Positions 3-25,270 of a stretch of 27,250 bases of DNA are shown here, piece after piece; the stretch's first letter is position 1, and each line of letters begins with the position of its first letter. The translations under genes and the position numbers were made by a program. Source of the DNA: Patescibacteria group bacterium. Its GTDB lineage: Bacteria > Patescibacteriota > Patescibacteriia > Magasanikbacterales > GWA2-37-8. Location of the stretch: contig SCQK01000009.1 of NCBI GenBank assembly GCA_004321885.1, positions 1 to 27,250 of the forward strand, in the 5' to 3' direction. Below the pieces are notes generated by a model. That model worked only from the letters and a program-made list of their open reading frames with translations. It ran no database searches and had not been told where the DNA came from.

Positions 3-3000
3 TATTTAAATAAAGAAGGAAAAAATCAATATGAACACTATCACCCAAATTTGGTTGATTTGATTAAAAAAACTGTAAAGGAAAGAGGTGAAATAGCGCC
101 GGAAGGATGGATGACTAATAAAGGGCTGGCGGAGATGTTGAAAAAAAACAAGTGGATAATTAATACGAAAGCCAATCAATACAGGCGTTCTTATCCTCAG
201 TGGTTTAAGGCGTATCTAATTCCGTCACTCAAACGGAAACATGAACATTATCATCCTAAATTAGTGGAAATAATTATTAAGGAGATTGAAAACGAAAAAG
301 AATATACTGAAAAAGACAAACTAAAGAAAGAAATGTGTGACTTTGTACAAGAATTAATCAATGGTAGTACAGATAAAAACAAGGATTTCCAATCAATAAT
401 ACGTGTCTGTGGCCCTTCACGCTATTTAGATATTCTTTATAAATTCCACCCTGAATATAAAGGATTGCCCGTGGATTACGTAAAAGGCGTCATCGCCGAC
501 TATCTTGGCGATTTTTTGGTAGCAAAAGGCGAATTTAGACCCGAAGATGTTCCTTTCACTTTAGAATATCTGTCGGATATCACTTTTCAAGAGGGCCTTT
601 ACGAAACCATCAAGGACAACTGTCTAAAATACTATTTTGAACAAAAACGTGCCGGCAAAAAAGACAGCCACGAAATAATTTATGGCTATCTAGATCACAT
701 GGTGAGCGAACTCGGCCACCTTAATAATTCAGTGCTTGATGACATCATTCAAAAAGTGATTGTTTACTACGATTCCGTTTTGCGTGACTTTTATAAGCCG
801 TCAAAATTCGTGAATACACTTAGCAAAGATCGCGAATTTCCGGATTTGAACCAAAAAATAAACATGAAAGAATTGACTGAAAAGAAACGCTTGCTCATCG
901 CCGATGAAATGGGTTTGGGGAAAAGTGCGTCGGTCATCATGGCCAAAGAACAATTGAGAATAAAATGCGCTTTAGTGGTAGCCCCCAGCAATGTATTAAA
1001 TACATGGCAACAATATTTGTCAGAAGTAGACGCTACTGACCCGAAAAGGGGCGGCTATTTCAAAAGCGGGCAAGCGCCACGGGTATTAAAGGTGGAAAAC
1101 GACGAGGACTTAGACCAAGTCAATGCCACTAACTACGACTACATCCTTATTTCCCAGGAACGTTTGAGCGGAGCCAATTATGTCGATAAATTACTGACGA
1201 CTGACTATGACATGTTGATAGCCGATGAAGTGCACAAATTGAAACGGCTTGAAAGCGCGCGCGCTCCGGAACTGTTACGGCTGGCGGGAAAAATAGAGGG
1301 AAAAGATAAATACCTGGCTCTTCTTTCCGGTACACCAATCCCAAATAAAATTGAAGATTTGGCTCTGTTACTCAAACTTCTTTATCCAAAAAAATTTGCT
1401 TCTGTTGATAGCGATGAACTCATCCAACAAATTATCTGCGGTGATACCATGGATCTGCGTGCTCTGTTGCTACCACGGATGCAAATGAAAAATTTGGAAG
1501 AGGGCGTGGAGATGCCTACGTTAACCGAAGAGACGATTAAAGTAGAACTTGATAAATTAGAAAAAGACATATATGAAGTACTCTTAGAGGAAAACGAACT
1601 AACCGCCTCGGAAAAAATAATAATGTTAAGACAATTTCTTTTAAATCCGGAATTGCTGAATTCTACTCCCGGGATTGAAGGTTCAAAAATAAAAGAACTA
1701 TCAAATAGCTTGGACACGGCTTTCCGACATCACGACAAAATCGTAGTGTTTGTTAATGACTACATTGAAGGAATAATGCGGGGGGAAAAATCAATCATAA
1801 AAAAATTACAATTGCCAGCCGATGTGACAATACGGGCAATACATGGAGAAACCGGCAAAGAGGAGCGGCTGGCAATACAGCAGGAATTGCGCCCGGCGCA
1901 TGGAAAATTTTTGCTATTTGTAAGCGGTCAGACAGCCGATGTGGGTGTTGATTATTCCGGCGCTCAACATGTCTTCTTCTACAATGAGCCATGGACCGAA
2001 TATCAAAAACGTCAAGAATTGGGCCGCGTCTATCGTCCCGGGCTGGAAGAAGGTTTGGAAAGCGACACGCTTGTCTCTGTCGGCACAATTGAAGAGGGCA
2101 TTCATGAATATATCCGCCGAAAATACATCGCCGTGGAAAAATTATTACGCGGGATTCCGATTACTGATTTGGAAAAAGAACTGCTGGAAAAAGACGAGAA
2201 AAGCAAGGAGCCGGATTTGTCAGTCAACCCGGAACTGGCCCAATACTATTTCTCTTCATGGGATAAGATGATGAAAATATTTGGTTATGTAAAAGAAATT
2301 GGCGAAGAAAAATTCAATAAATTTTTGTCCAAATACGCCAAGGATTACGCTGACTGCTATTTAGATCTGGGTAATCGCAGTTACCAGTCAAACGCCAACC
2401 GCGTATCCGGTACGCTAATCCATAAATTAGTGAAAGAATCCGGCAGTTCCGCGGAGTCACTGAAAATAATAGACATCGCTTCGGGCCCGGAAATGCTCAA
2501 ACAGCATATTGGAGACGAATATCGTGATAGAATTTTCAGCATTGATATCAACAAACAACATTTCGCGACACGAGAGGGTAACAAAAGAGTCGCTGGGAGC
2601 TTGTCGGCGATGCCTTTCGCAGATCAGTCCTTTGATTTCGCCAACATATCTCTTGCTCTGCATTACACTGGCTTCGCTCCAAGCAAGGGAAAACTGGAAC
2701 GGCTAAAAGTATTAATGGAAACTAATAGAATTCTGAAAGAGGGTGGCAAAGCGATAATTAATCTGATTTATACTCTTGAGCCGAAAGATTTTGAAAAATT
2801 TAAAGAAGCGGCCGAAGTGTTGGGTTTCCGAATTGTTGACGGATACACAGGCGAAGTTAGCGCGGACAAACAATATCTTTCCCGCGTCATTACGTTAGAA
2901 AAAATAAAAAATCTGGATACTAAATTGACCACGGAAGATATGTCCGGTCAATTGGGTAAAGAGAAGCTGGAGGGACTAAAATTCAAAAAAACTGAGGCGA

Positions 3001-3269
3001 AATTAAAGGATTCGCGACAGATTTTGACTTCTTTCAAATTGGGCGGCGCTAAAATTGACGTGCATTTTAACGAGGATGACTTAATGGTGTTAAAAGAAGA
3101 ACAAGAATTGTTGAGGGAGGGGGAATCGCTGAAGCGAAAGTACACAAAAATCGTAAATATACCGCCGCAAGAAATTATTGACCATAATTTTGTTCGCATC
3201 AAAATAGGAAAAAAATATATACTATTCAAAAAGTTATCCAAGGGCTCGGGAGTAGTAATAGTAAAATAA
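3..3269 (+). CDS. SNF2-family helicase fused to a C-terminal class I SAM-dependent methyltransferase; 5' end open at the window edge
   Basis: SNF2 motifs: I 'LIADEMGLGKS', II 'MLIADEVHKLK', III 'LSGTPIPNK', V/VI 'FVSGQTADVGVDYSGAQHVFFYNEPWTEYQKRQELGRVYRPG'. Class I MTase motifs: 'IIDIASGPE', 'SIDIN', 'PFADQSFDFANISLALHY', 'LKEGGKAII'. Reading frame is open back to nt 3, and the first listed start (TTG at 51) is probably internal. About 37% GC, lysine-rich C-terminus. Confidence 0.8.
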   Translation, partial: YLNKEGKNQYEHYHPNLVDLIKKTVKERGEIAPEGWMTNKGLAEMLKKNKWIINTKANQYRRSYPQWFKAYLIPSLKRKHEHYHPKLVEIIIKEIENEKEYTEKDKLKKEMCDFVQELINGSTDKNKDFQSIIRVCGPSRYLDILYKFHPEYKGLPVDYVKGVIADYLGDFLVAKGEFRPEDVPFTLEYLSDITFQEGLYETIKDNCLKYYFEQKRAGKKDSHEIIYGYLDHMVSELGHLNNSVLDDIIQKVIVYYDSVLRDFYKPSKFVNTLSKDREFPDLNQKINMKELTEKKRLLIADEMGLGKSASVIMAKEQLRIKCALVVAPSNVLNTWQQYLSEVDATDPKRGGYFKSGQAPRVLKVENDEDLDQVNATNYDYILISQERLSGANYVDKLLTTDYDMLIADEVHKLKRLESARAPELLRLAGKIEGKDKYLALLSGTPIPNKIEDLALLLKLLYPKKFASVDSDELIQQIICGDTMDLRALLLPRMQMKNLEEGVEMPTLTEETIKVELDKLEKDIYEVLLEENELTASEKIIMLRQFLLNPELLNSTPGIEGSKIKELSNSLDTAFRHHDKIVVFVNDYIEGIMRGEKSIIKKLQLPADVTIRAIHGETGKEERLAIQQELRPAHGKFLLFVSGQTADVGVDYSGAQHVFFYNEPWTEYQKRQELGRVYRPGLEEGLESDTLVSVGTIEEGIHEYIRRKYIAVEKLLRGIPITDLEKELLEKDEKSKEPDLSVNPELAQYYFSSWDKMMKIFGYVKEIGEEKFNKFLSKYAKDYADCYLDLGNRSYQSNANRVSGTLIHKLVKESGSSAESLKIIDIASGPEMLKQHIGDEYRDRIFSIDINKQHFATREGNKRVAGSLSAMPFADQSFDFANISLALHYTGFAPSKGKLERLKVLMETNRILKEGGKAIINLIYTLEPKDFEKFKEAAEVLGFRIVDGYTGEVSADKQYLSRVITLEKIKNLDTKLTTEDMSGQLGKEKLEGLKFKKTEAKLKDSRQILTSFKLGGAKIDVHFNEDDLMVLKEEQELLREGESLKRKYTKIVNIPPQEIIDHNFVRIKIGKKYILFKKLSKGSGVVIVK

Positions 3270-16028: not shown

Positions 16029-16982
16029 ATGAAACATCTAATCTCCCTAAAGGAACAAACAAAAGAAGACCTGCTGGAAATTTTGGATTTAGCAAAAAAA
16101 GTTAAAGCCACATACAAGGCCGGTGAGACGATGGAGCCATTAAAAAACAAAACCCTGCTCATGCTTTTTCAAAAAAGCTCCACGCGCACGCGCCTGTCGT
16201 TTGAGGCCGGCATAACCGAACTGGGCGGACACGCCATTTTTCTGGACAGCCGCGCCACGCAATTTTCGCTCACTGATTTCGGCGATGAAATAAAAGCCGT
16301 AATGCGCTTTGGCGACATCCTGATGTTTCGGGCCATGAAAGCGGCGGACGTGGAAAAGGCGGCGGGCTTCAATCAGATTCCGGTGATAGACGGTTGCAGT
16401 GAAAAATATCACCCGTGCCAGGCCTTGGGAGACATTTTGACAATGAGTGAGCATGCCAATGGACTGGAAAACGTGAAAAAAATCACTTGGCTGGGAATTG
16501 AAAACAACGTCTCTAACACCCTGACGCTGGCCGGCGCCAAACTGGGAATTGAAGTGACCATCGCCGCGCCCGAAGCCAACCCGGCCAGCGTGGACGCGGA
16601 GTTAAACGCCCAGGCCTCTGCCGTCGGCAAAGTGACACGCACTTTGAATTTGGCCGAAGCGCTGGCTGGCGCGAATTTCATCCACACCGACACCTGGATG
16701 GATATGGAATTTTTTTCCGACGGAAAAGTGAAGCCGCAATTTGAAGCCGAATACGAACGGCGCAAACGGGTGTTCACGCCTTTTCAACTAAACGCGGGCT
16801 TAATAAACACCCACGCCCCGCAAGCGAAAATTATGCACTGCATGCCGTGTCATGTGGGCTATGAAATTTCACGCGACGCCATAGACCATCCCAATTCAAT
16901 AATTTTTGACCAGGCGGAAAATCGCAAACACATCCAAAAAGCGATTATTCTTTGGCTACTTGGTATTCCCTCCCCTTTATAA
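16029..16982 (+). CDS. ornithine-carbamoyltransferase-family transcarbamylase paralog (substrate uncertain)
   Basis: 'STRTRLSFE', 'HPCQALGDILT', 'HCMPC' (OTC HCLP-type) and a C-terminal 'SIIFDQAENRKH' closely like OTCase. The ornithine-binding 'DxxxSMG' is 'DTWMDME'. Confidence 0.75.
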   Translation: MKHLISLKEQTKEDLLEILDLAKKVKATYKAGETMEPLKNKTLLMLFQKSSTRTRLSFEAGITELGGHAIFLDSRATQFSLTDFGDEIKAVMRFGDILMFRAMKAADVEKAAGFNQIPVIDGCSEKYHPCQALGDILTMSEHANGLENVKKITWLGIENNVSNTLTLAGAKLGIEVTIAAPEANPASVDAELNAQASAVGKVTRTLNLAEALAGANFIHTDTWMDMEFFSDGKVKPQFEAEYERRKRVFTPFQLNAGLINTHAPQAKIMHCMPCHVGYEISRDAIDHPNSIIFDQAENRKHIQKAIILWLLGIPSPL

Positions 16983-17004
16983 GGGGAGGGTTAGGGTGGG
17001 GTAT
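16968..17004 (+). repeat. family B element spanning the OTC-paralog stop and the pyrD RBS
   Basis: 'ccctcccc-tttataa-ggggaggg-ttagggtggggtat'. The TAA stop of the upstream gene is inside the hairpin loop. GGGTGGGG lies 5 nt before the pyrD ATG. Confidence 0.7.
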
Positions 17005-18072: not shown

Positions 18073-18945
18073 ATGGATAGTACAAAATTCTTAAAAATAG
18101 AAAAAATAACAGACGAAACCCCGTTCGTCAAAACATTCTATTTTAATCATCGCCTAAACAGCAAGCCCGGGCAATTTGTGATGCTCTGGCTACCGGGAAT
18201 TGACCAAAAACCGTTTTCCATCGGCTGGGAAGATGAAAACGGCTTTGCCCTGACTGTGTTCAATCGCGGACCGACGACGAACAAACTGTTTGAAATGAAA
18301 GCCGGCGAACGAGTGGGCATTAGCGGGCCCTACGGTACTTCTTTTTCCGTGCGCCCAAACACGCGCTATATCATGGTCGCCGGCGGCTATGGCGCCGCGC
18401 CTCTTTCTTTTTTGGCCAAGCAGCTATCTGTCATTGCGAGGAGCGTAGCGACGAAGCAATCCCAATCTACAAAAATTGATTTCCTCCTCGGCGCCCGCTC
18501 GGCCGAACACGTGCTATTTGAAGACCGTCTGTCAAAATTACCCAACACCAAAATCCACATCGCCACCGACGACGGCAGTAAGGGACATAAGGGATTTGTG
18601 ACCGACCTGCTTTCATCTGTCATTCCTGCGAAAGCAGGAATCCACGACAACTCACTGGATGCCCGTTTTCACGGGCATGACATATTCGTCTGCACTTGCG
18701 GCCCCGAACTGATGGAAAAAAAAGTTTTGGACGCTTGCAACGTCGCCGGCGTGGAATGCGAAATCAGCATTGAACGCTACATGAAATGCGGCGTGGGCGT
18801 GTGCGGACAATGCGCCGTGGACGACCTGGGCCTGCATATGTGCAAAGAAGGGCCGGTGGTAAGCGGCGCGCTCGCCAGTCAAATTAAAGAGTTCGGCGTC
18901 TACCATCGCGACAAAAGCGGGAAAAAAGTATACTTCGAAAATTAA
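18073..18945 (+). CDS. pyrK: dihydroorotate dehydrogenase electron-transfer (FAD/2Fe-2S) subunit
   Basis: FAD/NAD-binding fold and C-terminal 'CGVGVCGQCAV' cluster motif. Two in-frame family A insertions. Confidence 0.85.
   Translation: MDSTKFLKIEKITDETPFVKTFYFNHRLNSKPGQFVMLWLPGIDQKPFSIGWEDENGFALTVFNRGPTTNKLFEMKAGERVGISGPYGTSFSVRPNTRYIMVAGGYGAAPLSFLAKQLSVIARSVATKQSQSTKIDFLLGARSAEHVLFEDRLSKLPNTKIHIATDDGSKGHKGFVTDLLSSVIPAKAGIHDNSLDARFHGHDIFVCTCGPELMEKKVLDACNVAGVECEISIERYMKCGVGVCGQCAVDDLGLHMCKEGPVVSGALASQIKEFGVYHRDKSGKKVYFEN
18429..18463 (+). repeat. family A half-element in-frame in pyrK
   Basis: 'tgtcattgcgaggagcgtagcgacgaagcaatccc' matches the left 35 nt of the 13111 element with one mismatch. 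Encodes 'SVIARSVATKQSQ'. Confidence 0.75.
18618..18642 (+). repeat. family A short hairpin in-frame in pyrK
   Basis: 'tgtcattcctgcgaaagcaggaatc' matches the pyrC copy at 14899. Encodes 'SVIPAKAGIH'. Confidence 0.75.
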
Positions 18946-18961: not shown

Positions 18962-19006
18962 AAAAAAAGAAAAAGCTCTCATTCCGTGCGATGACGAAAC
19001 GAGAGC
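18962..19006 (-). terminator. rho-independent terminator for the - strand GC-rich gene
   Basis: - strand: GCTCTCGTTTCG-loop-CGGAATGAGAGC (imperfect 11-bp stem) followed by TTTTTCTTTTTTT. Confidence 0.5.
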
Positions 19007-19082: not shown

Positions 19083-19730
19083 CTACTTGCCGCGAGGAAG
19101 GAGATAGGAGGCGCCGAAGCCGTAGACAACCCAGCGGACGTCCAGCACCCAGCGAGCGCCGACCCAGGAGAGACAGGCCACGTAGAGGCCGCCACGCCGG
19201 CCGCGCAAAAGCGTGCCCGGCAGGACGATGATCTTGTCCTGCATCTCCTTCGGGATCTCGGCCTGGCACTCCAGCATACGCTTGCCATCCACCAGGCCGT
19301 AGTTGGCCTTGAGGACGACGGCGCGGGCGCGCATGACCTCGCCGTTGACATAGCCCGGGTCATCGGGCTCGAGGAAGGACACATACTCCAAGTCCTTCAC
19401 CTCGAACTGCGACGGGGCCACATCCTCCACCACCTCCCACTTGCGCTTCTTGCCTGCCTCGTCCTCGTACTCGGGGATGAGGTCGGCGGCGAGCAACTCG
19501 GACGGGAGCTGGTCGCGCTTGATCGATGCCGCCACGCTTTCGCCGTTTTCCTCGCCGATCGGCTCCAGCTTCAGCCGGAGCTTGCCGGCGCGAAACAGCT
19601 CCACGTTCTGCGCGCCCGTCTCACATCCGCCGAACTCCGCCCACAGCTTGAGGATCATGGCCCAGATCTGCTTCCCTGTCAGACCCTCCAGCACGGCCTC
19701 CAGTGTCTTCCCTTCCACTCTCGAACTCAT
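19083..19730 (-). CDS. hypothetical protein in a GC-rich (about 62% GC) inserted segment
   Basis: ATG with AAGGAG 7 nt upstream. Balanced E/K/D/L composition, unlike the Ala/Arg/Leu-rich overlapping frames. Terminator downstream. Interrupts pyrK...pyrE. Confidence 0.5.
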   Translation of the reverse strand: MSSRVEGKTLEAVLEGLTGKQIWAMILKLWAEFGGCETGAQNVELFRAGKLRLKLEPIGEENGESVAASIKRDQLPSELLAADLIPEYEDEAGKKRKWEVVEDVAPSQFEVKDLEYVSFLEPDDPGYVNGEVMRARAVVLKANYGLVDGKRMLECQAEIPKEMQDKIIVLPGTLLRGRRGGLYVACLSWVGARWVLDVRWVVYGFGASYLLPRGK

Positions 19731-19895
19731 GGCTGTTCTCCTTTCCGGCGCCTCGCCAGAATGGCAATTTGCCCCGCCCCGGGGCTCGGGTTTTTATGCT
19801 AAAAATAACAAAGAGCTAACAGCGATTTATATCACAACATTACTGCTTCTGTCAAGCTAAACACCGTCACAACCGCCATATCCTTTCACAAACCC

Positions 19896-19928
19896 TTGCG
19901 CGATTATCTGCGCGATTCTTGCGCGATT
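19896..19928 (+). promoter_or_regulatory. three direct repeats of TGCGCGATT (11-12 bp spacing) just upstream of the fic -10
   Basis: 'ttgcgcgatt' 19896, 'ctgcgcgatt' 19908, 'ttgcgcgatt' 19919. Operator- or iteron-like. Confidence 0.5.
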
Positions 19929-19938
19929 TAATTTTTTA

Positions 19939-19947
19939 TGGTATGAT
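19939..19947 (+). promoter_or_regulatory. extended -10 promoter TGGTATGAT for fic-pyrE-pyrF
   Basis: TGnTATGAT 29 nt upstream of the fic ATG. Same box type as 'TGGTATAAT' at 6712-6720. Confidence 0.45.
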
Positions 19948-19975
19948 ATTGGCAAGGAATTCTTCGGCCTAAACT

Positions 19976-21031
19976 ATGTTTGAACCAAAGTATAAAATCA
20001 CCAATCAAATCATCCAGATGCTCACCGCCATCGCCGAGGCCAAGGCGATTATTGAACGCGCGCGCCTTTTGCCGAAGCACGAACTCAAACTGCGACGCCA
20101 GGCCCTTCTCCGCATGACCCACAGCTCCACGGCCATAGAAGGCAACCGGCTGAATATGCGCGAAGTGGAGGCCGTGGCGGCGCGCAAAAAAGTGGATGCC
20201 CCGGAACGCGAAATCTATGAAGTAAAAAACTACCTGGAAGCGATTCGCTACATTGAAAAAGTCGTAAAAAACAACCAGCCAATCACCGAAAAGATTATCT
20301 TACAAATTCACCGGCTTGTAACCGACAAAACTTTGCCGGCACATTCCTCGGGGCAATATCGCAAAGGGCCGGTGTATGTGGTGCGGCGCTGGAGAGACGG
20401 CCGCCAGGAAGTTTTGTATACCGCGGCTGGCGCCGGACAAGTCCCCGGTCTTATGGCCGGCTTAACGCGCTGGCTCGCTGAAAGTGAAACGCAAAATATC
20501 AGCCCAGTCATCGTGGCCGGTATCGCGCACCAGGAAATCGCGGCTATTCACCCCTTTGCCGACGGTAATGGCCGCACCGCGCGCGCCCTGGCCACGCTTA
20601 TCCTTTACCGACGCGGCTACGACTTTCGCCGCCTTTTCGCCCTGGAAGATTTCTACAACGAAGACAGGCCGTCGTATTATCGCGCCATCAACGTCGGCAA
20701 AAACTACCAACAGCGCCGCGTTGATTTTACGCCATGGCTGGAATATTTTGTGCGCGGATTTAAGGAAGAAATTATTAAAGTGAAAAATAACGTGCTCACA
20801 CTATCGGCCAAAAAGGTTGACAAAAAAATTGAAGCGCAAATTTATCTTGATAAAGACCAGCTCAAAATTTTGGAGTTTGCCGACCAGATGGGAAAAATAT
20901 CCGTGGGCGACGTGGTGGATATTTTGAGTTGTCCCAAACGCACCGCCCAATCGTATCTACAAAAATTAAAAAAACTGAAAATTATCCGGCAAGTCGGCAA
21001 AGGGCCGGCCAGCGGATATATAATAGCGTGA
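19976..21031 (+). CDS. fic: Fic/Doc family protein (class II, N-terminal inhibitory helix) with C-terminal winged-helix domain
   Basis: Fic motif 'HPFADGNGRTARAL'. Inhibitory motif 'STAIEG' ([ST]xxxE[GN]) near the N-terminus. C-terminal HTH-like 'ISVGDVVDILSCPKRTAQSYLQKL'. Stop is 6 nt before the pyrE ATG. Confidence 0.85.
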   Translation: MFEPKYKITNQIIQMLTAIAEAKAIIERARLLPKHELKLRRQALLRMTHSSTAIEGNRLNMREVEAVAARKKVDAPEREIYEVKNYLEAIRYIEKVVKNNQPITEKIILQIHRLVTDKTLPAHSSGQYRKGPVYVVRRWRDGRQEVLYTAAGAGQVPGLMAGLTRWLAESETQNISPVIVAGIAHQEIAAIHPFADGNGRTARALATLILYRRGYDFRRLFALEDFYNEDRPSYYRAINVGKNYQQRRVDFTPWLEYFVRGFKEEIIKVKNNVLTLSAKKVDKKIEAQIYLDKDQLKILEFADQMGKISVGDVVDILSCPKRTAQSYLQKLKKLKIIRQVGKGPASGYIIA

Positions 21032-21037
21032 TTTTTT

Positions 21038-21634
21038 ATGCTCAAGAAACTAATCATCAAACTCCACGAAATCAACGCCGTCAAATTCGGGGAATTCAAA
21101 TTAAAAAGCGGAATAATGTCGCCGATATACATTGACTTGCGGGTGACGATTTCTTATCCCGAAGTTTTGAAAATGGTGGCCGAGGCCATGTGGGAAAAAG
21201 TCAAAGACGTTAATTTTGATTTGATTTGCGGAGTGCCTTACACCGCCCTGCCCATTGCCACGGCCATTTCTCTGGCGCATGACAAACCAATGATCATGCG
21301 GCGCAAGGAAGTAAAGGACTATGGCACGAAAAAAGCGATTGAAGGCGCGTTTGTCGCCGGACAAAAAGTATTGGTGGTGGAGGATTTGGTGACGAGCGGC
21401 AGTAGTGTGTTTGAAACGATTGAACCTTTACAACACGAAGGATTGACGGTGAGCGATATTGTGGTGTTGGTGGACCGCGAACAGGGCGGCCGCAAGCATC
21501 TGGCGGAAAAAGGGTTTAATTTACATTCGGTTTTGACGATTTCGGAAATGTTAGCTGTTTTGGTAGAAGCCAGTAAATTGGACAACGCGATGGCGGATAA
21601 GGTGAAAGATTTTATAAACGCGAATCAAGTATAA
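21038..21634 (+). CDS. pyrE: orotate phosphoribosyltransferase
   Basis: 'KFGEFKLKSGIMSPIYIDLR' and PRPP motif 'VLVVEDLVTSGSS'. Confidence 0.9.
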   Translation: MLKKLIIKLHEINAVKFGEFKLKSGIMSPIYIDLRVTISYPEVLKMVAEAMWEKVKDVNFDLICGVPYTALPIATAISLAHDKPMIMRRKEVKDYGTKKAIEGAFVAGQKVLVVEDLVTSGSSVFETIEPLQHEGLTVSDIVVLVDREQGGRKHLAEKGFNLHSVLTISEMLAVLVEASKLDNAMADKVKDFINANQV

Positions 21635-21640
21635 CAAATA

Positions 21641-21754
21641 CCCCTCCCCCACCCTCCCCTTATAAAGGGGAGGGTGCAATTTTCCTCCCCCTTTATAAGG
21701 GGGAGGCTCGCCACCACACCAAATGCTTTGGTGTGGTGGCGAGGAGGGGGTAAA
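21641..21754 (+). repeat. two tandem family B hairpins plus a 14-bp perfect hairpin and SD tail in the pyrE-pyrF spacer
   Basis: 'ccctcccc-ttataaa-ggggaggg', 'cctccccc-tttataa-gggggagg', 'ctcgccaccacacc-aaatgcttt-ggtgtggtggcgag' (21707-21743), then 'gagggggtaaaaatt' before ATG. Confidence 0.7.
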
Positions 21755-21758
21755 AATT

Positions 21759-22520
21759 ATGAAATACAAACAACGCGCCGAGATGTGCGCCAATCCGACC
21801 GCCAAAAAATTACTTGAATTGATGAATGAGAAACAAACAAACCTGGCGCTGGCCGCGGACGTGACGACCAAAAAAGAACTGCTGGAAATCGCCGACACGT
21901 TGGGGCCGGAAATCTGCGTGCTTAAAACGCACATTGATATTATTGGGGATTTTGATTCTGATTTAATCATCCAGCTTCAGCGCTTATCAGAAAAACACAA
22001 TTTTCTTTTTTTTGAAGACCGCAAATTCGCTGATATTGGAAACACGGTCATGCACCAATACCAAGACGGCATTTATCACATCGCGGACTGGGCGCATATC
22101 GTGAACGCGCACACTGTTCCGGGTCCTGGAATTATTGATGGATTAAAAGAAGTGGGTCTGCCCAAAGGGCGCGGGTTGCTATTACTGGCGGAAATGAGCT
22201 CCAAAGGCGCTTTGGCGAGCGGCGCCTACACCGAAAAAACGATAAAAATGGCGCAGGCCAACAAGGATTTTGTCGTCGGCTTTATCACTATGCGCCAGCT
22301 AATTGACGACCCGTGTTTTATAAACTTCACGCCCGGGGTTCAGCTCGCCCAAGGAGCGGACGCGCTGGGCCAGCAATACAACACTCCGGAAAACGTCATC
22401 GCCAAACAAAAATCCGACATTATTATTGTCGGACGAGGCATTTACAAGGCCGCGGACCCGGTCGCCGAAGCGAAAAAATATCGCGAGGCCGGTTGGAAGG
22501 CCTACACTTCTATTATTTAA
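21759..22520 (+). CDS. pyrF: orotidine-5'-phosphate decarboxylase, eukaryote (URA3)-like type
   Basis: 'YKQRAE...[20 protein letters not shown]...[10 protein letters not shown]', '[16 protein letters not shown]', '[11 protein letters not shown]'. Long collinear similarity to fungal URA3 as I recall it. Start 'MKYKQRAE' after the element RBS. Confidence 0.85.
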
Positions 22521-24164: not shown

Positions 24165-24250
24165 ACCCCCTCCTCTGTCCTCCACCTAAAAGGGGGAGAA
24201 AAGTGACAGTGTTACCCCTCCCTCGCCCTCCCCTTATAAAGGGGAGGGAA
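24165..24250 (+). repeat. compound family B element in the nif3-hypothetical spacer
   Basis: 'cccccctcctctgtcctccacctaaaagggggag...cccctccctcgccctcccc-ttataaa-ggggaggg'. Confidence 0.6.
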
Positions 24251-25233: not shown

Positions 25234-25270
25234 CTCTCCCCTTTATAAGGGGAGAGACAGAGAGGGGTAA
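25234..25270 (+). repeat. family B element upstream of nif3
   Basis: 'ctctcccc-tttataa-ggggagag-acagagaggggtaat'. Confidence 0.65.

Follow-up and report, generated by a model that had tools for sequence, protein, structure and literature searches.

Organization of the locus

We analyzed a 27,250-nucleotide (nt) stretch of DNA from a Patescibacteria group bacterium (contig SCQK01000009.1, positions 1 to 27,250 of the forward strand, hereafter the window), in which a gene for a Fic-domain protein (fic, 19976-21031, plus strand) lies among the genes of pyrimidine biosynthesis and behind an array of three direct repeats. The locus is present in the source samples SRR8426592 and SRR8426596. The plus strand carries, in this order, gatB, carA, carB, pyrB, pyrI, pyrC, a second gene resembling ornithine or aspartate carbamoyltransferases, pyrD, and pyrK (18073-18945). 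These are followed by orf215, which encodes a hypothetical protein on the minus strand (19083-19730), and then by fic, pyrE (orotate phosphoribosyltransferase, Pribosyltran domain; 21038-21634, plus strand), pyrF (orotidine monophosphate decarboxylase, OMPdecase, E=7e-64; 21723-22520, plus strand), and ruvA on the minus strand. Homologues of pyrF align from residue 12 onwards, so its true start may be at 21756. The gap between the fic stop and the pyrE start is only 6 nt, as had been pointed out in an earlier note made from the sequence alone. The nearest relatives of pyrE belong to Candidatus Magasanikbacteria, and proteins identical to the two products are named "Fic family protein" and "orotate phosphoribosyltransferase" (Patescibacteria group bacterium) in the databases.

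The repeat array (19896-19928, plus strand) is composed of the 10-mers TTGCGCGATT (19896-19905), CTGCGCGATT (19908-19917), and again TTGCGCGATT (19919-19928), with start-to-start distances of 12 and 11 nt. The exact sequence TGCGCGATT occurs three times in the window, starting at 19897, 19909, and 19920, and these are its sole exact copies in the 27,250 nt. Copies with one mismatch were found 16 times against 14.4 expected, which is chance level, and the clustered triple is thus no effect of base composition. The proximal repeat places the hexamer TTGCGC (19919-19924) 17 nt upstream of TATGAT, i.e., at the -35 position of a putative fic promoter whose extended -10 (TGGTATGAT) lies at 19939-19947. 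This agrees with the earlier description of three direct repeats ahead of an extended -10. The fic promoter was missed by a consensus promoter scan, since TTGCGC has just three of its six bases in common with TTGACA, and was judged instead from its conservation across loci. The leader of fic in the window measures 28 nt and has no obvious Shine-Dalgarno sequence. Rfam gave no matches at the gathering threshold in the window, and no pyr-type RNA element was found by it.

Features of the Fic protein

The 351-residue product of fic matched the Pfam Fic family (PF02661) with an E value of 5.9e-19, above the cut-off, while its matches to Fic_N and HTH_69 were weak. Class II Fic enzymes, in the classification of Engel et al. 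2012, are those in which the inhibitory motif sits in the same chain, N-terminal to the catalytic loop; in this class, the inhibitory glutamate extends to where the gamma-phosphate of ATP binds and forms a pair with the second Arg of the catalytic motif. Read from the sequence, the window protein is of this class II type. Specifically, its inhibitory-helix motif S51-TAI-E55-G56 (20126-20143, plus strand) fits the pattern (S/T)xxxE(G/N) and starts in the same chain 136 residues N-terminal to H192, with which the catalytic loop opens. That loop (residues 192-203, 20549-20584, plus strand; H192-PFADGNGRTA-R203, HPFADGNGRTAR) is intact and fits HxFx(D/E)GNGRxxR. The comparison of 24 homologues revealed that S51, T52, I54, E55, G56, and N57 are invariant, as are all positions of the catalytic motif save position 195. 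Conservation was highest in the catalytic loop (0.905), followed by the inhibitory helix (0.86) and the recognition helix of the C-terminal domain (0.83), the value for the protein as a whole being 0.74. In conservation, the recognition helix (CPKRTAQ..LQKLK) thus comes close to the inhibitory helix and exceeds the protein overall.

The AlphaFold2 model of the protein (mean predicted local distance difference test, pLDDT, 78.6) ends in helices at residues 293-305, 310-317, and 321-333 and a beta hairpin at 337-350, which together make up a winged helix (20852-21028, plus strand). Its recognition helix covers approximately residues 318-333 (CPKRTAQSYLQKLKKL) and its wing reads GKGPASGY. The linker in front of it (residues 277-290) is poorly defined, with pLDDT below 50, and residues 30-60 around the inhibitory helix reach only 49-68. 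Foldseek aligned the model over its full length with 4RGL, 8CIL (CbFic2), 3EQX/3ZEC (SoFic), and 7XUX (CccR) as top matches, and gave a probability of 1.00 to many Fic structures. Taken together, the motifs, the Pfam match, and the model bear out the earlier assignment of a class II Fic enzyme with a C-terminal winged helix.

PADLOC matched the protein to its SoFic defence profile at 2.8e-56, with residues 7-342 aligned to positions 24-343 of the 361 in the profile. The earlier note had offered a toxin-like module as its fallback, and this match makes it the better reading. A class I FicT/FicA or Doc/Phd toxin-antitoxin pair was also considered and ruled out, since the inhibitory motif is internal and no adjacent small gene is conserved among 273 neighbors. 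This is a very large family. Of the candidates tested, more than 5,600 proteins scored below 1e-10, the top homologues are 65-72% identical to the window protein, and at least 535 of 600 genome stretches picked by pattern matching were verified to be Fic relatives.

Conservation of the array and fic across loci

Two sets of loci were compared. The genome set comprised 80 loci from genomes of different species across the Patescibacteria that encode Fic relatives with 58-72% protein identity. The metagenome set comprised 92 loci picked on the basis of the exact triple-array DNA motif alone, of which 86 had enough downstream DNA to be assessed. In the genome set, the array stood upstream of fic with at least three copies in 71 of the 80 loci and with two copies in another six, that is, in 77 of the 79 assessable loci. 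Of the remaining three loci, two had no array at fic, one of these being L070, where arrays are present further upstream; the third was truncated ahead of the fic start. The scan by DNA motif alone led to the same gene from the opposite direction: Fic was scored behind the array in 76 of the 92 hits, and after removal of L099 (a 29% match on the opposite strand) 75 of the 86 assessable arrays remained followed by fic.

The geometry of the array is nearly fixed as well. Repeat starts were 11 nt apart in 129 cases and 12 nt apart in 20, and the second and third repeats were always 11 nt apart. The distance from TTGCGC in the last repeat to the -10 hexamer was exactly 17 nt in 77 of 78 loci. At this fixed position the hexamer was TATAAT in 34 of the 78 loci, TATACT in 15, and TATGAT in six, and it was preceded by TGn in 43. 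With the sequences held in fixed register, mean pairwise identity was 0.78 within the array, whose columns are near-invariant, versus 0.27 (random level) in the flank upstream of it. The Fic proteins themselves are only about 60-70% identical across the array-bearing loci.

On the other hand, the genes flanking fic are unrelated from locus to locus. Clustering of the 273 open reading frames (ORFs) around the 80 fic loci produced a largest cluster of three members, and no conserved partner, antitoxin, or target gene emerged from it. These comparisons suggest that fic and its upstream array form a self-contained cassette of about 1.15 kilobases (kb), belonging to a very large and highly conserved SoFic-like Fic-winged-helix family in Patescibacteria (also known as the candidate phyla radiation, CPR). 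Although Fic proteins of this kind are known, the direct-repeat operator-promoter appears to be undescribed: no paper in the searchable library ties Fic to CPR or Patescibacteria, and TTGCGCGATT occurred there only in unrelated primer or sequence contexts.

Two further observations concern the transcripts and the distribution of the cassette. In 23 of the 78 loci (e.g., L003, L004, L008, L019, L039, and L058), the ATG follows 6 nt after the end of the -10 hexamer, and the fic messenger RNAs of these loci are probably leaderless. The cassette, complete with a bacterial-type -35/-10 promoter, was also present in bins labeled Pacearchaeota (L035) and Nanoarchaeota (P0007), as well as in loci labeled Elusimicrobia, Ignavibacteriaceae, Bdellovibrionales, and Gammaproteobacteria. 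Its presence in DPANN and other non-CPR bins could reflect transfer across domains, or else mis-binning or mislabeling of short contigs.

Insertion into the pyr operon

Comparison with the pyr loci of relatives indicates that the segment 18946-21037 (orf215, the operator-promoter, and fic; about 2.1 kb) was inserted between pyrK and pyrE specifically in this lineage. The pyrK/pyrE junction is variable, since relatives either join pyrK to pyrE or hold a NUDIX gene there. In L086, whose pyrE is 92% identical, a gap of 10 nt separates pyrK from pyrE, which is followed by pyrF. In L087 and L088 (pyrE 81% identical) pyrK is directly followed by pyrE, and in L082-L084 (82-83%) a NUDIX gene lies between them. 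Neither fic nor orf215 was found in the pyr loci of these six relatives. The insertion was common only to L181, a strain from the same study that is 93.5% identical at the nucleotide level and keeps orf215, the array, and the fic start together. No target-site duplication was recognizable at the edges of the insertion, and there are no transfer RNA genes in the window.

The second gene of the insertion, orf215, has a GC content of about 65% compared with about 50% around it, and gave no Pfam, NCBIfam, or PADLOC match. It has only 21 homologues, all of them unnamed or hypothetical and mostly on tiny contigs, and was never found next to fic in the 80 fic loci. The cassette and this unrelated high-GC gene would thus have been inserted together, splitting a contiguous pyr operon. 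Three terminator-like features surround the insertion, namely a hairpin 3' of orf215 found by consensus scan (18975-19006, minus strand), a GC hairpin with a T-run (GCCCCGCCCCGGGGC TCGGGTTTTT; 19771-19795, plus strand), and a palindrome with a stem of 12 base pairs (bp) between pyrE and pyrF (21650-21676). The site at 19771-19795 could halt read-through from pyrK ahead of the fic promoter. Judging from this arrangement, pyrE and pyrF are probably now transcribed largely from the fic promoter. The co-transcription of fic, pyrE, and pyrF put forward in the earlier note holds as far as their physical placement as one unit is concerned, and the shared transcript is what this placement predicts. 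The dependence of pyrE-pyrF on the fic promoter would be a by-product of the insertion, with no designed link to pyrimidine metabolism.

The earlier note had gone further and tied fic to the synthesis of uridine monophosphate (UMP) and to control by UMPylation. According to such an explanation, Fic would be a functional part of pyrimidine control, co-regulated with pyrE-pyrF and modifying a target, perhaps with UMP, according to nucleotide supply. It draws on the spacing of fic and pyrE, which leaves no room for a terminator, and on the shared arrangement in L181. Some Fic enzymes use uridine triphosphate (UTP), AvrAC reportedly being one of them; the NCBIfam XopAC/AvrAC model matched the window protein only weakly (49 bits versus a cut-off of 450), and its sequence bears no sign of a UTP preference. 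However, when the linkage of fic and pyrE was surveyed in relatives with tblastn of all window proteins, no pyr gene was found within 8 kb of fic in any of the 80 genome loci, nor near the array in any of the 92 motif-selected metagenome loci. Relatives whose pyrE is 81-92% identical have their pyr operon without fic, most CPR genomes with this Fic have unrelated genes next to it, and the operator-promoter belongs to the Fic family and is not specific to pyr genes. The linkage is thus lineage-specific, an outcome of the kind that the earlier note had itself named as refuting, and on this comparative evidence a role in pyrimidine control is close to refuted and, in our estimation, highly improbable, so that the idea of control by UMPylation is best abandoned.

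Binding of the array and direction of regulation

Of all genes, only fic travels with the array, and its product carries a winged helix. We consider it likely that the locus as a whole represents a mobile cassette which encodes a SoFic-like toxin or defence protein, regulates itself, and was inserted by chance in the pyr operon. In such a cassette, the three TTGCGCGATT repeats with their 11-nt period would be the operator of its own sigma-70-type promoter, the proximal repeat supplying the -35 hexamer at 17 nt from the -10. The binder would most likely be the flexibly tethered C-terminal winged helix of Fic itself. Since the array consists of three direct repeats at an 11-nt period, the flexibly tethered domains are expected to bind head-to-tail. 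Binding would lead to negative autoregulation of a potentially toxic AMP (adenosine monophosphate)-transferase, which the inhibitory glutamate E55 would additionally restrain from within. The cassette would likely serve as a SoFic-type module, either toxin-like or directed against phages by abortive infection. Self-binding is plausible because the related proteins CccR, SoFic, and CbFic2 bind DNA. The proposal that the repeats are an operator, perhaps for the Fic winged helix, gained strong comparative support from the two sets of loci, and binding as such is a prediction. More generally, the comparisons show the anatomy of the locus, the conservation of array and promoter together with fic, the lack of pyr linkage in other loci, and the insertion, and we infer from them the array binder, the direction in which it regulates, any toxic or defensive role, and the common transcript.

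Variation within the family also touches on the binder. A change of the operator from ATT to AAT or TAT (repeat positions 8-10) goes together with a change of the wing from GKGP to GKGK and with an altered C-terminus. Among the seven most informative mutual-information columns, four lie in the last 13 residues (339, 344, 350, and 351).

Several observations weigh against this explanation, or parts of it. The array binder is assigned to Fic from co-occurrence, and the loci with the AAT operator form essentially one clade, which makes the covariation with the wing a hint and no proof. Direct repeats would require another geometry than the symmetric-dimer recognition of inverted repeats in known Fic-winged-helix proteins, of which CccR is the mapped case. 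The score against the NCBIfam SoFic equivalog model (NF046030) was 67.1 bits versus a curated cut-off of 550, which does not indicate orthology to SoFic, and with a score so far under the cut-off a defence function is not transferable by orthology. The terminator at 19771-19795 is a consensus match only, and transcription of the pyr operon may still run on into pyrE-pyrF. The remaining points, the arrays found at genes other than fic and the geometry of the repeats, each lead to a different explanation.

First, ten of the 86 assessable arrays of the metagenome set, representing eight distinct sequences, precede genes other than fic (the loci include L090, L094, L102, L125, L142, L158, and L164). 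Read from the sequences, without profile confirmation, these genes are AbiEi-like, a small ORF with an AbiEii-like gene, XRE-type, radical-SAM, and small ORFs. In the genome set, L070 (700-3182) carries two arrays, one before a pair made up of a small ORF and a DUF/aspartyl-protease-like gene and the other before a hicBA-like pair, and both array-bearing pairs lie just upstream of a fic without an array of its own. In L039 the rare variant TGCGTGATT occurs both at fic and in a second array 3 kb away (at about 4992), before a GNAT-like gene. Because some arrays precede such genes, the array may serve a wider regulon or another factor, and these loci point to a small regulon or, alternatively, to a promoter module that is portable. 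The latter would be a promoter/operator unit of CPR toxin-antitoxin and defence genes which is read by another factor or acts purely by recruiting RNA polymerase. That every repeat opens with a -35-like TTG fits such a unit, as does the fact that binding of the array by Fic is a prediction. Nevertheless, fic directly follows about 87% of exact arrays, and an array is present at about 97% of fic genes, while no second conserved gene travels with it. The recognition helix of Fic is about as conserved as its inhibitory helix, wing residues shift together with repeat positions 8-9, and two related Fic-winged-helix proteins bind their own promoters. A portable module independent of Fic therefore seems quite unlikely to us.

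Second, three direct repeats and a weak -35 resemble, by analogy, the sites of PhoB-type activators, so that the sign of regulation is uncertain. Fic might bind the array as an activator in the manner of PhoB at class II promoters, and positive autoregulation would then make the cassette a switch. The array does have an 11-nt period, a conserved 7-nt core with a 4-nt A/T-rich spacer, and an end exactly at the -35, which has only three of six matches; this mirrors the pho boxes bound head-to-tail by the winged helix of PhoB. Repression of fic by its own product is nevertheless favored, because the -10 is near consensus, the protein is toxin-like, and CccR provides a precedent. Specifically, a -10 of this quality, often extended (TGn in 43 of 78 loci), should make an activator unnecessary for the promoter to fire, autorepression is seen in toxins and in the homologous CccR, and a positive loop would be a hazardous arrangement for a toxic enzyme. 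We thus regard activation as unlikely.

A more far-reaching version of self-repression can be formulated, which we put forward only tentatively and consider doubtful as a whole. According to it, a single gene would combine toxin, antitoxin helix, and repressor in a cassette that has spread through the Patescibacteria and possibly DPANN; its operator would be bound head-to-tail and would have been reused ahead of other toxin-antitoxin and Abi genes for a small Fic-controlled defence regulon, and pyrE-pyrF would have been taken over by its promoter. If this were true, head-to-tail recognition would be a DNA-binding mode not described for Fic proteins. It would also mean that the last two steps of UMP synthesis hang on the promoter of a defence gene and fall when Fic represses.

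Defence context and mobility

AbiE-like, HicAB, and XRE genes were found among the neighbors of the fic and array loci. In the literature, SoFic counts among the standalone proteins of defence (10.1101/2022.05.11.491447), and EcSofic is toxic in Escherichia coli (PMC12249575). The closest homologue of the window Fic, P0002 (72% identical; L182 1-13056), is encoded together with its array within a prophage-like block, on the strand opposite to it and in the manner of a prophage moron. The genes of this block include those for capsid, connector, tail tube, Dit, and amidase. No close relatives of Fic were found in IMG/VR, where the matches consisted of distant ones (33% identity at most) and one unrelated array match. 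In view of this result from IMG/VR, the prophage-like context of P0002 is the one observation that speaks for spread by phages. This Fic is among the most widespread toxin- or defence-like genes of uncultured Patescibacteria, and the window illustrates in what way an essential biosynthetic operon can be broken up and re-wired by a cassette of this kind.

Other features of the window

The second aspartate/ornithine carbamoyltransferase-like gene (16029-16982) lies between pyrC and pyrD and is 26% identical to pyrB. Its position is kept in all Magasanikbacteria relatives examined. At the start of the window (51-3269), a protein of 1072 residues fuses an SNF2-family helicase with a methyltransferase domain, and shows weak PADLOC similarity to ZorD, DpdE, and BrxH.

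Short palindromic elements are scattered between and possibly within the genes. A 21-nt palindrome, CCTCCCCTTATAAAGGGGAGG, occupies intergenic positions 16969-16989, 21653-21673 (with a variant at 21685-21705), 24227-24247, and 25235-25255. With seven strand-matches versus zero expected, it looks like a family of REP (repetitive extragenic palindromic)-like elements, and where it lies between pyrE and pyrF (21650-21676) it is scored as an intrinsic terminator. The pyrK gene carries in-frame inserts at two hot spots, VIARSVATKQSQS (18431-18470) and IPAKAGIHDNSLDARFHGHD (18620-18680). The pyrK genes of L082, L084, and L086 have differing inserts at one or both of these hot spots (such as ...SRFRGND..., IPAKAGIQ, and PSPRSGGTQDDN), and that of L087 has none. 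The inserts resemble short palindromic repeat elements colonizing the surface loops of a coding gene.

Comparison with known systems

Among characterized proteins, SoFic of Shewanella oneidensis (SO_4266; 3EQX, 3ZCN, and 3ZEC), EcSofic, and SoFic as a single-gene anti-phage system in PADLOC share with the window protein the class II helix, the HPFxDGNGRxxR loop, and the winged helix. SoFic has been reported to bind the 100 bp ahead of its own start codon (bioRxiv 10.64898/2026.07.09.737422), its operator sequence is undefined, and its target is EF-Tu. The window protein differs from it in that identity is only about 20% in the Foldseek alignment, in that by the equivalog score it is not an orthologue, and in that fic in the window is followed by pyrE and not by a small AS1-like antitoxin gene.

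CccR of Yersinia pseudotuberculosis (7XUX) likewise combines a Fic domain with an HTH (helix-turn-helix) at the C terminus and provides the precedent for binding to the own promoter, which it represses through this HTH independently of AMPylation (PMC9755527). In its operator, two 10-bp repeats face each other in inverted orientation with 26 bp between them and are occupied by a symmetric dimer, with sites at the -35 and -10 (PMC9755527). The window array, in contrast, is made up of three direct repeats with an 11-nt period which end at the -35, and a palindromic operator as in CccR was not found there. Moreover, CccR is an effector of a type VI secretion system, whereas fic in the window has no secretion context.

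CbFic2 of Coxiella burnetii (8CIL) was the second-best full-length structural match (about 21% identity). The abstract and section list of its description present a host-directed effector acting on histone H3, whose balance of AMPylation and deAMPylation is set by DNA binding, and name no dedicated conserved operator (PMC10628234). By analogy, it is a possibility that operator binding also controls catalysis in the window Fic. The best match in the Protein Data Bank (PDB) was the Dde_2494 Fic protein of Desulfovibrio desulfuricans (4RGL; sequence E=2e-25, Foldseek 3.1e-17, 27% identity), which is listed just as the crystal structure of a Fic family protein and for which the tools used gave neither a functional description nor information on an operator.

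As for the geometry of the site, the closest counterpart lies outside the Fic proteins. Winged helices of the PhoB/OmpR type bind head-to-tail to direct repeats which recur every 11 bp and overlap the -35 or take its place, and flexible linkers decouple them from the symmetric dimerization domain. The likeness to the pho box is an analogy of site geometry only: the window Fic has neither a receiver domain nor a sequence relationship to PhoB, and PhoB activates. Fic-winged-helix enzymes (CccR, CbFic2, and SoFic) have recently emerged as AMP-transferases that bind DNA as well, and among them CccR is the only one with a mapped operator. In this regard, the CPR family offers a sharply defined operator of 32 bp which is kept across about 150 independent loci, and whose fixed geometry makes stoichiometry, head-to-tail recognition, and DNA-dependent control of AMPylation testable.

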